A stretch of 58,043 nucleotides of DNA, from contig JBDRDI010000039.1 in assembly GCA_043820875.1 (NCBI GenBank), positions 1 to 58,043 of the forward strand. Reading direction: 5' to 3'. The notes under the pieces are model-generated. The model worked only from the letters and a program-made list of their open reading frames with translations, made no database searches and was not told the origin of the DNA. Numbering within the stretch: the first letter of the stretch is position 1; each line of letters starts with the position of its first letter. Positions 15,950 through 44,641 of the stretch are shown piece by piece. A program made the position numbers and the translations under genes. Source of the stretch: a bacterium. GTDB taxonomy: Bacteria; Patescibacteriota; Patescibacteriia; Patescibacteriales; UBA12075.

Positions 15950-17431
15950 ATGACCATCGACAGGATAATTGCCAAAGTTCTTGAAAACGATCCGCATTCT
16001 GACACGGATCTTTTGCAGTTGGCTTATGATTTCGCGAAAAAAGCGCATGAAGGGCAAAAAAGAAAGAATGGCGAACAATATATTCAGCACGGCCTGCACA
16101 CTGCTTTTCTTTTGACGCAGATGCGAGCTGACTTGAACACCGTAATTGCCGGAATTTTGCACGATGTTCCCGAAGATACAAATTATTCGCTGGAAGATAT
16201 TAAAAAAAATTTTGGCGATGAGGTGGCCAAATTGGTGGAGGGAATTACAAAATTAAGTAAAATAAAATATCACGGTGTTAAAAGACAAAGAGAAAATTTA
16301 CGCAAAATGTTTATTGCCATGGCGCGCGACTTACGAGTAATAATTATAAAATTCTGTGACCGCCTTCATAATTTAAGAACTTTGGAAGCTCACAAAGAAG
16401 AAGAAAAAAGAACGCGCATCGCCCAAGAGACAATGGAAATTTACGCACCAATCGCCGGACTTTTAGGAATCTGGCGGTTAAAATGGCAGATGGAAGATAT
16501 TTGTTTTAAGTATTTAAACCCCAAGGAATATAAAGAACTGGAATATAAATATGAAATTGATAAAAAAACAGAACGCAACCAATACATTCAAAAAATAAAA
16601 AATATTTTAGGAAAAAGTTTAAAAGAATCCGGCATTGAATATAGAATTGACGGTCGATTCAAACACTTATACAGCATTTATAAAAAAATGCGCATCAAAG
16701 ATTATAAATTTGATGAAATTTATGACGTATTCGCCCTGCGCGTTATTGTACCGACAGTCTCAGACTGTTACAAAACGCTGGGCGTAATTCACTCCACGTG
16801 GAAGCCAAAAGCGGATCGGATCAAAGATTATATTGCCATGCCAAAACCAAACGGCTACCGCGGTTTGCACACTACTGTTTTCGCTCCGGAAAAAAAATCC
16901 GTGGAGTTTCAAATTAGAACGCAGGAAATGCACGAAGAAGCTTTGTATGGAATCGCCGCTCATTGGTATTACAGCAAACAAAAATCAGGAAACAAAACCG
17001 ACTATTTCAAACAACCCAGATGGGTCAAGGAAATATTAAACATCCAAAAAAGAGCCTTGGACACAAATGAATTTATCCAAGAAATAAAAATGGATATCTT
17101 TAATGATCGCATATTTGTTTTGTCTCCCAAGGGCGACGTGTTTGATTTGGTTGACGGCTCAACACCAATTGATTTCGCGTACGCGGTGCACACTGAAATT
17201 GGCAATAAAGCAACCAGCGCCCGCGTCAACGATAAAATGACGCCGCTCGATCAAAAATTAAGCAATGGCGATGTGGTGGAAATAATTATTGAAAAAAATC
17301 GAAAAAACCCAAACCAAGATTGGCTGAAATTCGTGAAATCCAACCGAGCAAAAGAAAAAATAAAATCATTCTCCAAGACATCGCGTTTTGAGCAGATTAA
17401 AAAAATTATTCCCGGGATACAGCGGAAATAA
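15950..17431 (+). CDS. rel: RelA/SpoT homologue (HD hydrolase, synthetase and TGS domains; no ACT domain)
   Basis: H.GQKRK.GE.YI.H; LHDVPED; IKFCDRLHNLRTL; GRFKHLYSIYKKM; DVFALRV; KDYIAMPKPNGYRGLHT; EFQIRT; TGS motif GSTPIDFAYAVHTEIG. Confidence 0.93.
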   Translation: MTIDRIIAKVLENDPHSDTDLLQLAYDFAKKAHEGQKRKNGEQYIQHGLHTAFLLTQMRADLNTVIAGILHDVPEDTNYSLEDIKKNFGDEVAKLVEGITKLSKIKYHGVKRQRENLRKMFIAMARDLRVIIIKFCDRLHNLRTLEAHKEEEKRTRIAQETMEIYAPIAGLLGIWRLKWQMEDICFKYLNPKEYKELEYKYEIDKKTERNQYIQKIKNILGKSLKESGIEYRIDGRFKHLYSIYKKMRIKDYKFDEIYDVFALRVIVPTVSDCYKTLGVIHSTWKPKADRIKDYIAMPKPNGYRGLHTTVFAPEKKSVEFQIRTQEMHEEALYGIAAHWYYSKQKSGNKTDYFKQPRWVKEILNIQKRALDTNEFIQEIKMDIFNDRIFVLSPKGDVFDLVDGSTPIDFAYAVHTEIGNKATSARVNDKMTPLDQKLSNGDVVEIIIEKNRKNPNQDWLKFVKSNRAKEKIKSFSKTSRFEQIKKIIPGIQRK

Positions 17432-17500
17432 AAAAATACCGCATTTTTGTAGAGACAGGTTTCAAACCTGTCTCTACAAAAATGCGGTATTTTTTTATTT
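17426..17500. repeat. 75-bp perfect palindrome centred on REP core GTAGAGACAGGTTT-C-AAACCTGTCTCTAC; probably also a bidirectional terminator
   Basis: 37-bp arms pair perfectly around position 17463; lies between convergent rel and yqeY. Confidence 0.9.
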
Positions 17501-17949
17501 TATTCTGACAAAATCTTTTTGACAATCGCGTTGATTGCTCCTCCGTCCGCCTGACCTTTCAACTTGCCCATTACCGCTCCCATTGCTTTTCCCAAATCAT
17601 TTGCGGAAAATTCTCCTGAACTTATAATTTCTCGCGCGATTTTTTTAATTTCTTCCTCGCTCATCTGTTCCGGAACATATTTTGTTAAAATTTCTATTTC
17701 TTTTTTTTCCTTATCTGCCAAATCCGGACGAGAACCTTGCTCATAAGCAAGAATAGAATCTTTTCTTTTTTTTATTTCTGTTTTTATCACTGCCACAATT
17801 TGTTCATCGTTCAGATCATCACCTTGTTTCAATTCTATTTTTTTATTCTTAATGGTGGCAATAATCATACGCAAGGTTGATAATTCCAACTCGTTTTTAA
17901 CGCGCATAGCATCTTTCAAGTTGTTATTTATTTCTTCGAATTTTGACAT
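17500..17949 (-). CDS. yqeY: GatB/YqeY domain protein
   Basis: LKDAMRVK...LSTLRM...EIKKRKDSI.AYEQG.R.DLA.KE..EI.IL..Y.PEQMS...GKAMG.VM. Start re-assigned to MSKFEE because the longer ORF start lies inside a palindrome. Confidence 0.88.
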   Translation of the reverse strand: MSKFEEINNNLKDAMRVKNELELSTLRMIIATIKNKKIELKQGDDLNDEQIVAVIKTEIKKRKDSILAYEQGSRPDLADKEKKEIEILTKYVPEQMSEEEIKKIAREIISSGEFSANDLGKAMGAVMGKLKGQADGGAINAIVKKILSE

Positions 17950-17973
17950 AAAAATTTTATGATGAAATTCCAA

Positions 17974-18041
17974 CGCTTTTTTCCGCTTTTTTGTTAGGCT
18001 GGGTTTTAAAACCCAGCCTAACAAAAAAGCGGAAAAAAGCG
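17974..18041. repeat. 68-bp perfect palindrome centred on core GTTAGGCTGGGTTTTAAAACCCAGCCTAAC
   Basis: 34-bp arms; the same 30-bp core recurs at about 39182 and 44590. Confidence 0.9.
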
Positions 18042-18052
18042 CGGTTTAATTT

Positions 18053-42918: not shown

Positions 42919-43050
42919 CCGGCAGAGTCTCCTCCGTTGAAATTGTCCCGGCAGAGTCTCCTCCGTTGAAATTGTCCCGGCAGAGTCTCCTCCGTTGAAA
43001 TTGTCCCGGCAGAGTCTCCTCCGTTGAAATTGTCCCGGCAGAGTCTCCTC
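42919..43050. repeat. Direct tandem array of about 4.5 x 29 bp (CCGGCAGAGTCTCCTCCGTTGAAATTGTC), no spacers
   Basis: Units start at 42919, 42948, 42977 and 43006, with a partial unit at 43035 running into a full REP. Confidence 0.9.
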
Positions 43051-43123
43051 GCAAGGGACTCTGCCGCGGTTTTCTATTCTACACGGCGTCGTAGTCCTCT
43101 GCGGAGAGACTACGACGGGACAG
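43031..43123. repeat. Two-hairpin REP unit upstream of RAYT-2
   Basis: Same two hairpins as 42231-42321; a degenerate echo AGACTACTACGGGATA follows at about 43131. Confidence 0.88.
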
Positions 43124-43227
43124 AGGTAAGAGACTACTACGGGATAGAAGAGACGGGGGGTGGGGTGGAATGATAGAAAACGTTTTTATAAACATCCTGT
43201 CAATCCTTTAATCCTGAGAATCCTAGT

Positions 43228-44547
43228 TCAAACCCTCAACAACTTCTCAAACTTCTTCTTGTCCTTAAACGGTCCAATGACGGCCAGATTCAAATTTTTA
43301 GGCGTAAAAATTTCTTGCGCTACGCGCTGAATATCTTTGGCTGTGATTTTTTTTATTTCCAGCAGATGTTCTTCCGGAGAAAGCAGTTTTAAATTTTTCG
43401 CTTTTGGATCCGTTCTTTTTGTGGCGTCAATCATGGCCGCTTGCCGGCCGAACCAATTGGCCATATTGTCAGACTCTTCCATTTGAATCGCGACATGCCC
43501 GGAGAGCATGTCTTTGGCTCGTTGTAGTTCCGCGTGACTTACCAGCTTTGTTTTTATTTTTTTATACTCATCCAAAATAATATCAATTGCTTGAAAAATT
43601 TTTCCAATCGGCACTCCGGCGCGTGTGGCAACATATCCTGAATCAGTATAGCTTTCGCAATCCGTATGCACGGAGTAGGCCAATCCGTTTCTTTCACGCA
43701 AAGAAAGAAAAAGACGCGAGCTCATTCCTCCGCCCAGAATTATGGAAATCATTCTTGCGGCTGATTTTTTTTCGTCCGCGAAAGAACATGCCCGGCATCC
43801 CAAAACCAAATACGCTTGATCGGTTTTTTTATATTCCATCAAGCACTGTGGAGAAGATTGATATTCAAGAACTTTTTCTTTTTCATAAAAATTATTTCCG
43901 CGAGAATCAAGTATGGCTCCGGAAAAATATTTTTCAAGTTTTCTTTTAATCTCTTTTTCTTTGCTACTGATATTCCCAGCCAAAACAATTGTGATATTAC
44001 GCGCGCCATATTGTGAATTCAAATAATCTATAAAATCTTTTCTTTTAAACTTCAGAATATTTTTTTTCGGTCCGATGGTCCATCTTCCGGCCGGAGTGTC
44101 ACCGTATAAAAGCTCTTCAAATATATCTTCAATATGCGCCATGGGATTGTCCAAATACATGTTATATTCTTCAACAATCACGCCCTTTTCTCTTGCTATT
44201 TCTTTTTCTTCTATTTTTGAGTTGAAAAGCATATCGCTCAAAACATCCATGCCCAATTCAATTTTTTCAGCTGTCGCTTTTACCCAATAACCGGTATATT
44301 CTTTTGAAGTATAAGCATTGAATTCCGCGCCAATACCGTCCAGCGCCGAAGAAATATTAAAAGTATCCGGTCTTTTTTTTGTGCCCTTGAAAAACATATG
44401 CTCCAAAAAATGCGATATACCGTTGTTTTCTTTTTTCTCATATTTTGATCCTGTCCCCACCATAACTAAAATCGCGGCAGTTTTCGTGCCGCGCATTGGC
44501 GCTGTAATTAATTTCAAACCGGATTTTAAAGTTGTTGTTTTTTGCAT
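43228..44547 (-). CDS. M16 family (pitrilysin-like) zinc peptidase
   Basis: Inverted zinc motif HFLEH; GSKYE; NAYTSKEYT; E..VI.EE; LGGGMSSRLF..LRE..GLAY. Confidence 0.94.
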   Translation of the reverse strand: MQKTTTLKSGLKLITAPMRGTKTAAILVMVGTGSKYEKKENNGISHFLEHMFFKGTKKRPDTFNISSALDGIGAEFNAYTSKEYTGYWVKATAEKIELGMDVLSDMLFNSKIEEKEIAREKGVIVEEYNMYLDNPMAHIEDIFEELLYGDTPAGRWTIGPKKNILKFKRKDFIDYLNSQYGARNITIVLAGNISSKEKEIKRKLEKYFSGAILDSRGNNFYEKEKVLEYQSSPQCLMEYKKTDQAYLVLGCRACSFADEKKSAARMISIILGGGMSSRLFLSLRERNGLAYSVHTDCESYTDSGYVATRAGVPIGKIFQAIDIILDEYKKIKTKLVSHAELQRAKDMLSGHVAIQMEESDNMANWFGRQAAMIDATKRTDPKAKNLKLLSPEEHLLEIKKITAKDIQRVAQEIFTPKNLNLAVIGPFKDKKKFEKLLRV

Positions 44548-44567
44548 AATTATAATATTAAGTTAAT

Positions 44568-44641
44568 GCTTTTTTACGGAAATTTTTTTGTTAGGCTGGG
44601 TTTTAAAACCCAGCCTAACAAAAAAATTTCCGTAAAAAAGC
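44568..44641. repeat. 74-bp perfect palindrome centred on the GTTAGGCTGGGTTTTAAAACCCAGCCTAAC core
   Basis: 37-bp arms centred at 44604/44605. Confidence 0.9.

Follow-up and report, generated by a model that had tools for sequence, protein, structure and literature searches.

The DNA analyzed here is a stretch of 58,043 nucleotides (the window) that corresponds to contig C39 of G000, the 0.92-Mb metagenome-assembled genome (MAG) of a groundwater organism of the Patescibacteria (60 contigs, 37% GC, 92.6% complete). It carries five long palindromes built on cores that resemble repetitive extragenic palindromic (REP) sequences, as well as two genes of the REP-associated tyrosine transposase (RAYT) type, and this work deals with how the arms of such palindromes arise and stay symmetrical. 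A previous reading of the letters alone (the original prediction) had reported five mismatch-free palindromes, and both direct reading of the sites and an inverted-repeat scan confirmed them at the positions listed in Table 1, with arms of 34-38 nt, a center of zero or one base and 100% complementarity. Two REP cores of the GTAG...CTAC type were present as claimed, core A at two and core B at three of the sites: core A (GTAGAGACRGGTTTSAAACCYGTCTCTAC) was located at 17449 and 25801, and core B (GTTAGGCTGGGTTTTAAAACCCAGCCTAAC) at 17993, 39182 and 44590, with zero matches expected for either of them from dinucleotide shuffles. T5-7/A5-7 tracts and outer arms of 13-18 nt were also borne out at the five sites.

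Site 1 makes up the entire spacer between the convergent genes relA/spoT (stop codon at 17429-17431) and yqeY (stop codon at 17500-17502), and reaches into both stop codons. Site 2 is located between an rpsU-like (S21) gene and yqeY, both on the minus strand, and site 3 between two divergent genes, a hypothetical one (minus) and dprA (plus). Co-directional genes surround site 4, and two minus-strand genes surround site 5. No match reaching the gathering score of an Rfam family was obtained in the window. Longer imperfect symmetry beyond the perfect arms was restricted to the element family of site 4 and to C4:29369, being absent at the window's four other sites.

Table 1. Palindromes, RAYT genes and associated repeats in the window (empty strand cells, no strand given).
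Feature	Position	Strand	Description
Palindrome 1	17426..17500		37-nt arms, 1-nt center; AAATAAAAAAATACCGCA-T5-core A (17449-17477)-A5-mirror
Palindrome 2	17974..18041		34-nt arms; CGC-T6-CCGC-T6-core B (17993-18022)-mirror
Palindrome 3	25779..25851		36-nt arms, 1-nt center; CCACGGGAAAAATTAA-T6-core A (25801-25829)-mirror
RAYT-1, RAYT-like Y1 HUH transposase gene	26990..27592	+	HUH motif (HVH, PNHVHGIII) and Tyr (ERFYDRII) present
Bare core A copy	27617..27645		Just downstream of RAYT-1; 14-nt arms, no T/A tract
Second downstream copy	27677..27722		46-nt repeat of the RAYT-1 in-frame segment, with degenerate core A GCGGAGAC...CTCTAC
Miniature inverted-repeat transposable element (MITE)-like element, ~175 bp	39101..39274		24-nt terminal inverted repeats GGCTCTTTAACATATTTGGGTAAA; palindrome 4 is its center
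Palindrome 4	39159..39234		38-nt arms; GGCAAAACCATGCTGA-T7-core B (39182-39211)-mirror
RAYT-2, second RAYT gene	42343..42894	-	NF047646 89.7 bits, above the cut-off of 80
Palindrome 5	44568..44641		37-nt arms; GC-T6-ACGGAAA-T7-core B (44590-44619)-mirror

A whole-genome scan of G000 showed that its perfect palindromes are bimodal, with ordinary terminator-like hairpins (arms of 11-17 nt) on one side and palindromes with arms of 20-40 nt on the other; all except one of the latter were centered on GTAG...CTAC cores. When mismatches were allowed, about 41 cores of 28-30 bp were found, belonging to five families. GTAG (families A, C, D and E) or GTTAG (family B) stands at the 5' end of both strands, where it pairs with CTAC or CTAAC in a perfect stem. 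Most cores (28 of about 41) were armed, that is, followed by a T/A tract and further mirrored sequence, with half-lengths of 23-44 nt (34-44 nt in 20 of the 28), and in every armed copy the symmetry stopped abruptly. The perfect palindromes layered in this way span 46-88 bp. Whereas all five window sites are indeed mismatch-free, this description does not extend to the whole genome: 14 armed copies were perfect, nine had one mismatch and five had several. The mismatched copies imply that the structures decay as real sequence does, and that they are not forced into perfection by an assembler. In seven of the nine single-mismatch copies the mismatch fell in the core (10 nt or less from the center), the other two being at an outer arm edge that is itself doubtful.

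The original prediction had also stated that the arms differ at every locus, which failed in the genome-wide comparison, since the arms of sites 1, 2, 4 and 5 recur elsewhere. Once arms were sorted outward from the core, they fell into subfamilies that occur in unrelated contexts. The subfamily of site 1 was found also at C21:7231 (AAATAAAAAA(A)T(A)CCGCA-T5, with the same core A sub-variant), that of site 2 at C24:1676 and that of site 5 at C4:29394; C18:8888 and C41:5256 share another one, and the arms of site 4 were present at four other loci (C4:20345, C40:17950 and C32:7510 with core B, and C20:2163 with core A). Comparison of related copies gave at least 12 differences that were present in mirror image on both sides, comprising substitutions, single-base indels and changes in the length of the T/A tracts, and no outer arm had a difference that its partner lacked. 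That all differences are mirrored indicates that one arm was copied from the other, because selection for pairing would allow G-T pairs and unequal A and T runs.

These observations bear directly on the view that the long hairpins have a function as RNA or DNA structures (terminators or stabilizers of mRNA 3' ends), their perfection being due to ordinary compensatory evolution. It agrees with the position of about 17 of the 29 palindromes checked genome-wide, which adjoin a stop codon (25 nt or less), with the terminator-like scores of sites 1 and 3 on both strands and with the general enrichment of inverted repeats after bacterial gene ends (bioRxiv 10.1101/2024.09.29.615628). However, it accounts neither for mirrored indels nor for T and A tracts of equal length at every copy; not one G-T intermediate was seen in about 500 outer-arm pairs, and the perfection reaches well past what a terminator needs. 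Moreover, some copies are located between divergent genes (site 3 and C21:22395), sites 2, 4 and 5 are not terminator-like, and a fresh insertion in a related genome (G021:C79, described below) already carried a perfect mirrored flank of 15 nt. We consider compensatory evolution a very unlikely source of the symmetry.

A terminator scan flagged sites 1 and 3 on both strands, and did not flag sites 2, 4 and 5 as whole hairpins. Copies between convergent genes have arms with an A-tract, stem and T-tract layout. Because they adjoin stop codons, many copies presumably double as terminators or 3'-end hairpins; for some of them such a use is plausible, although the symmetry does not originate from it. 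A core B palindrome of 88 bp in G000 (C16:5201-5288) overlaps both of its convergent genes by 5 nt, and both genes stop at a mirrored TAA within the arms, each 40-42 nt from the center.

Palindrome 4 is part of a MITE-like element with a terminal inverted repeat consensus of GGCTCTTTAACATnTTTGGGyAAA. Five copies of this element were found in G000 (39101-39274 in the window, C20:2100-2275, C40 ~17870-18091, C4 ~20230-20480 and C32 ~7400-7600), in both orientations relative to the neighboring genes. A possible 9-bp target duplication (AAAAACACC) accompanies the copy in C20, and is imperfect in C39; no parent transposase was identified. Neither the site-4 arms nor the MITE-like element occurred without a core in G000, and in 250 genomes of the order they were not found, apart from chance AT-rich matches. 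The copies at C20:2163 and C40:17950 have identical arms, identical T6/A6 tracts and element flanks that are about 93% identical, yet the first one contains core A and the second one core B. The same frame with different cores means that cores are exchangeable inside a constant palindromic frame. In the sister genus g15, of which four species were compared (G014, G021, G023 and G024), one orthologous site likewise carries different cores in the same A-rich, GC-clamp and T7 (T7/A7) frame (G024:C98 and G023:C56).

Outside G000, core B was found bare (15-nt arms, no T/A tract) in MAGs of Falkowbacteria and Kuenenbacteria, whereas a compensated variant of core B (GTTAGCCTGGG...) was armed in three g15 species. 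The arms are thus a lineage-specific addition, present in independent assemblies. At two g15 loci an empty site was available for comparison with the filled one. In the first of them, G021:C79:2565 has a palindrome with 44-nt arms and the orthologous sites G023:C72 and G024:C90 are empty. The empty site of G023:C72 reads GAATAAAATAT / AATTTGTAGTATTCG / CATT, and the insert in G021:C79 consists of AATC + CGAATGTTATAAATT + [TTTTGTCC-T6-core-A6-GGACAAAA] ahead of AATTTATAACATTCG. The right outer arm (15 nt) is homologous to the empty site. The left one, for which the empty site has no counterpart, is the reverse complement of the right one in 15 of 15 nt. G023:C60 shares the inner layer GTCC-T6 of this insert.

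The second locus is occupied by a palindrome in two species, G021:C52:1820 and G024:C125:1773, which are orthologous (88-89% identity over 2.5 kb), and it is empty in G023:C59 (...AATATTAC / TGTATG...). The filled site of G024:C125 reads ...AATATTAC[AAATTATAA-T6-core-A6-TTATAATTT]GTAATATT-T-TGTATG..., where, compared with the empty site, only the left outer arm pre-exists and the right arm is new, being the reverse complement in 8 of 8 nt. G024 and G021 differ at this locus by one substitution that is present in both arms (ATTATAA/TTATAAT versus ATTACAA/TTGTAAT), an in situ mirrored change. In G014 this site is occupied by another palindrome, at whose center the contig breaks. A further candidate, G023:C13:7222 compared with G021, was left uncounted, as its spacer was too diverged for the junction to be placed. 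Two other G021 copies, C84:6926-7005 and C44:2380-2461, are related to each other and carry a small hairpin in each arm, GAAAC-TCG-GTTTC in one and GAAAC-CGA-GTTTC in the other, so that the loop is inverted in a flip-flop-like manner.

At both g15 loci one outer arm pre-exists, not both, and neither empty site contains a hairpin. Of the two routes put forward in the original prediction, the one in which dispersal creates an inverted copy of the target flank was upheld for the outer arm in the sister genus (15 nt at the C79 locus and 8 nt at the C52/C125 locus), and not for the inner arms and the T/A tracts, which arrive with the element. The other route, by which REPs enter the loops of existing hairpins, finds a counterpart in the core swaps within fixed frames (C20/C40 and G024:C98/G023:C56), but the empty g15 sites had no hairpin to enter, and insertion into pre-existing hairpins alone cannot explain the outer arms. 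Taken as a complete account, this second route would make the arms older hairpins (terminators or other palindromes) at whose loops cores insert or are swapped, with no de novo synthesis of arms. The identical arms around cores A and B, the two cores in one T7/A7 frame at an orthologous site, the layout of bidirectional terminators in the arms between convergent genes and the other palindrome of G014 at the C52/C125 site would all suit it. Against it, the two empty sites hold one arm only, searches of G000 and of 250 genomes of the order gave no arm pair lacking a core, empty frames with zero loop and a T(n)A(n) center are nearly absent from G000 (one weak candidate, C8:31857), and the arm stems, with GC clamps of 4-7 bp, are weaker than the ordinary terminators of this genome. 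We regard it as quite unlikely to be the whole explanation.

The explanation we favor, with somewhat more confidence than doubt and from assembled sequence, is that the palindromes are REP/RAYT-type hairpins that have been enlarged and kept perfect by fold-back (template-switch) DNA synthesis. They consist of four layers: a central core, exchangeable within an unchanged frame; the T(n)/A(n) tract; inner arms, which are carried along with the element and by which the subfamilies are distinguished; and an outermost layer (8-15 nt in g15), which would have been copied as reverse complement from the sequence bordering the insertion site. After replication of the hairpin, the nascent strand would fold back and copy its own flank, in an intrastrand template switch primed at the hairpin. 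Repeated fold-back copying would both enlarge the palindrome and erase its asymmetries, so that the arms would evolve in concert. Such copying would explain why new insertions have an inverted copy of the flank, why changes are mirrored and why the T and A tracts are of equal length. Symmetrization would be most efficient far from the center and correction of the core rare, the short fold-back stem being unstable there; mismatches would be concentrated in the core because fold-back correction needs a stable stem inside the mismatch.

We infer that template switching is the copying process, which is known to write reverse-complement repeats of adjacent sequence and to fix stems in one step (PMC8794818; PMC3820800). 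In our data the corresponding features are an exact reverse complement of adjacent sequence (at the g15 loci, not at the window loci) and differences mirrored in both arms. The SbcD_C, MutS_V and ExoI C-terminal domains had no match in G000 (92.6% complete), and given the lack of SbcD_C and MutS_V matches, long palindromes are probably tolerated in this organism.

Several observations weigh against fold-back enlargement. Exonuclease VII (ExoVII), a suppressor of such events in E. coli, is present, its large subunit being encoded at C27:11170-12093. Half of the armed copies have mismatches, so symmetrization is not instantaneous, and the core bias of the mismatches could partly reflect a GC-to-AT mutation bias in a GC-rich core; by our estimate, that bias accounts for only part of the skew (P ~0.015 if only G/C sites mutate). 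Gains and losses were told apart by parsimony and not from a resolved species tree, and at the C79 locus a 3-nt microhomology deletion could yield the state seen in G023. Of the 8 mirrored bases of the C52/C125 locus, 6 (AATATT) form a self-complementary stretch, and a direct target duplication would explain most of the mirrored bases. In G021:C84 a whole 80-bp palindrome, absent from the three sister species, was inserted with no recognizable local layer. As for carry-over of the inner arm AAATTATAA of the C52/C125 locus to G021:C87, only an 8-nt AT-rich match was found, the left arm being cut there by the contig start. Finally, no empty orthologous site was found for the five window loci, G000 being the only species of its genus, and the evidence for flank copying comes from the sister genus and a related core. 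For the window loci the closest relatives shared at most 65% YqeY identity in GTDB and at most 60% among metagenome contigs, and an exact-protein look-up returned nothing.

A more far-reaching version, possible but doubtful, is that these are accreting mobile palindromes. Fold-back synthesis, possibly primed by a RAYT nick in a rolling-hairpin-like way, would add the inverted target flank, and the enlarged hairpin would then move as a unit. If this were true, the succession of layers in the arms (GC clamp, T-tract, GC clamp, T-tract) would record, like strata, where the element had been inserted before, and a genome of minimal spacers would obtain terminator-like hairpins from these elements.

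The window encodes candidates for the mobilizing enzyme. The product of RAYT-1 scored 69.5 bits against NF047646, below the 80-bit cut-off, its match being split by an insert. A core A copy lies in frame within the gene (27311-27339) and encodes AETGFKPVST. It belongs to a 46-nt segment that occurs twice, at 27296-27341, in frame between the HUH and Tyr motifs, and at 27677-27722, 85 nt past the stop codon. As the original prediction had noted, the core A copies in or beside this open reading frame (27311, 27617 and 27692) lack long arms, having arms of only 11-14 nt; in G000 generally, copies beside RAYT genes are bare and dispersed copies are armed. Many dispersed palindromes of 28-30 bp, with copies flanking a RAYT-like gene, bear out the REP identity given in the original prediction, and we infer that a RAYT moves the cores or the units.

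Whether the enzyme also makes the arms is a separate matter. A RAYT might nick the foot of the extruded hairpin and stay bound to the 5' end while the 3'-OH folds back and is extended by about 10-25 nt on its own strand, after which the enzyme would rejoin the ends; arm formation would then be part of transposition, in a rolling-hairpin-like manner. New insertions that already have an inverted flank copy, the fairly narrow half-lengths (34-44 nt in 20 of 28 armed copies), the bare state of the RAYT-adjacent copies as opposed to the dispersed ones and the retention of the HUH and Tyr motifs in RAYT-1 are all compatible with this. Nevertheless, at an orthologous locus a substitution became mirrored in place, with no transposition involved, other Patescibacteria have the same core dispersed in armless form, known Y1 transposases (IS608 and E. 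coli TnpA-REP) produce no flank duplication (PMC3479197), and none of our results ties the enzyme to the copying step. Template switching during ordinary replication explains the mirrored changes equally well as fold-back triggered by an HUH nick, and we judge the enzyme-specific route to be unlikely.

The palindromes were read from assembled contigs, and the original prediction had named a fold-back artefact of assembly or library preparation as a real alternative. Contigs do break at or inside such palindromes (G000 C6:1-34, the end of G014 C19 and the start of C20, and G021 C79:1-98), and de Bruijn assemblers are known to produce fold-back contig ends erroneously. On the other hand, interior palindromes have unique coding flanks on both sides, the half-lengths vary (23-49 nt) and track no single k-mer, and 14 copies keep mismatches, so that they were not symmetrized by the assembler. 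Furthermore, the same architecture is present in independent MAGs of other studies, and an orthologous copy exists in two species with diverged flanks. With arm lengths variable, mismatches kept and independent MAGs in agreement, the artefact alternative was not supported, and we hold it to be highly improbable. In G021, the contig C79 starts with a 49-nt arm mirrored to its first base (1-98), which is probably an assembler fold-back at the contig end. A low-depth metatranscriptome (X1) holds the organism, as judged by an S21 gene of 100% identity; no X1 contig spans a palindrome. Protelomerase or hairpin-telomere junctions, MITEs bounded by terminal inverted repeats and P-nucleotide footprints were ruled out as well, the center being conserved, the flanks unique and the mirror spanning the element and not each flank.

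REPs, RAYTs and template-switch mutation have all been described already, and the combination found here is a variant with mirrored and partly target-derived arms. As in REP/RAYT systems (REPtrons; Di Nocera 2013, PMC3733652; Bertels and Rainey 2011, PMC3116915; Messing 2012, PMC3479197), the elements are short palindromes with GTAG ends that are dispersed outside genes, a Y1 HUH transposase gene present in single copy is flanked by some of them, several families coexist in one genome, and positions after genes and between convergent genes are preferred. In contrast to the described REPs, in which GTAG is an unpaired tag next to an imperfect stem, GTAG is paired here with CTAC in perfect cores; dispersed copies are extended by T/A tracts plus 10-29 nt of mirrored sequence, with arms that differ among subfamilies and derive partly from the target flank, and one copy lies in frame inside a RAYT gene. 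No description of mirrored or partly target-derived REP arms, or of core exchange in a fixed frame, was found in the REP literature searched. REPINs are also long hairpin-forming mobile units around REP sequences, but they consist of two inverted REPs with conserved ends and a variable loop, whereas here a single self-complementary core is conserved and the outer arms are variable. Each element has one such core and its outer arms are not REP copies, which sets it apart from a REPIN.

Template-switch or quasi-palindrome mutagenesis (Ripley model; Monttinen and Loytynoja 2022, PMC8794818; yeast quasi-palindromes, PMC3820800) resembles the process proposed here in its replication-linked reverse-complement copying of nearby sequence, in the production of perfect stems in one event and in the fixing of mismatches, which gives apparent multi-base compensatory changes. 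It has been described as a general process in genes and reporters, while in our case it would recur on mobile hairpin seeds and would build layered palindromes of 70-90 bp that then disperse as units. With bidirectional intrinsic terminators, sites 1 and 3 and most convergent-gene copies share the A-tract, stem and T-tract and the adjoining stops. They differ in their stems (34-44 bp versus 5-15 bp) and in their center (zero or one base versus a loop of 3-8 nt), and, in addition, sites 2, 4 and 5 have no 3' T-run and some copies lie between divergent genes.

REPs are among the commonest bacterial repeats, and how they spread and how their hairpins are maintained is still argued. The natural empty and filled sites indicate that a REP-type insertion can bring a reverse-complement copy of the target flank. 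The REP/REPIN model includes neither flank copying, nor concerted change of the arms, nor the exchange of cores within a fixed frame. Genomes of the candidate phyla radiation have been reported to top the density of perfect inverted repeats, without a mechanism (bioRxiv 10.1101/2024.09.29.615628); REPs enlarged by fold-back would offer a mechanistic reason for it. Mobile hairpins might likewise be a source of terminators, and even of stop codons, for genes that are tightly packed, as at C16:5201-5288. In practical terms, MAG assemblies are interrupted at such palindromes, which can give rise to contig ends that fold back.

Other repeats and Y1 domains were observed along with these palindromes. 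RAYT-2 is bracketed by a different, third hairpin family (CGGCAGAGTCTC...GACTCTGCCG) at 42235-42265 and 43036-43066. Including its form AGTCCTCTGCGGAGAGACT..., this family was found in the window at 42235-42265, 43007-43066, 44661-44706, 46851-46939 and 57834-58017, and it recurs near giant surface-protein genes. Upstream of the S21 gene, the window contains an imperfect inverted repeat (18323-18430) with 38-nt arms and repeated AATCTACAAAT units, of which the segment 18338-18370 matches high-depth contigs of other organisms (runs X2 and X3); this motif may be conserved.

Elsewhere in G000, within C47:3167-5401, an open reading frame of 715 amino acids encodes an N-terminal Y1_Tnp (IS200/RAYT-like) domain (amino acids 17-130), which scored 74.6 bits against NF047646, below the cut-off of 80, and 59.3 bits against the IS200 model, above its cut-off of 55. 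The reading frame runs on into the editing, catalytic C-terminal and anticodon-binding domains of leucyl-tRNA synthetase (LeuS), of which the first ~200 residues are missing. A core B copy is located 16 nt upstream of this open reading frame that starts with the Y1 domain; it corresponds to a decayed core B palindrome (C47 5306-5383), just beyond which the contig ends. The arrangement could be a split leuS gene with a transposase domain fused to its second part, or an in-frame insertion.

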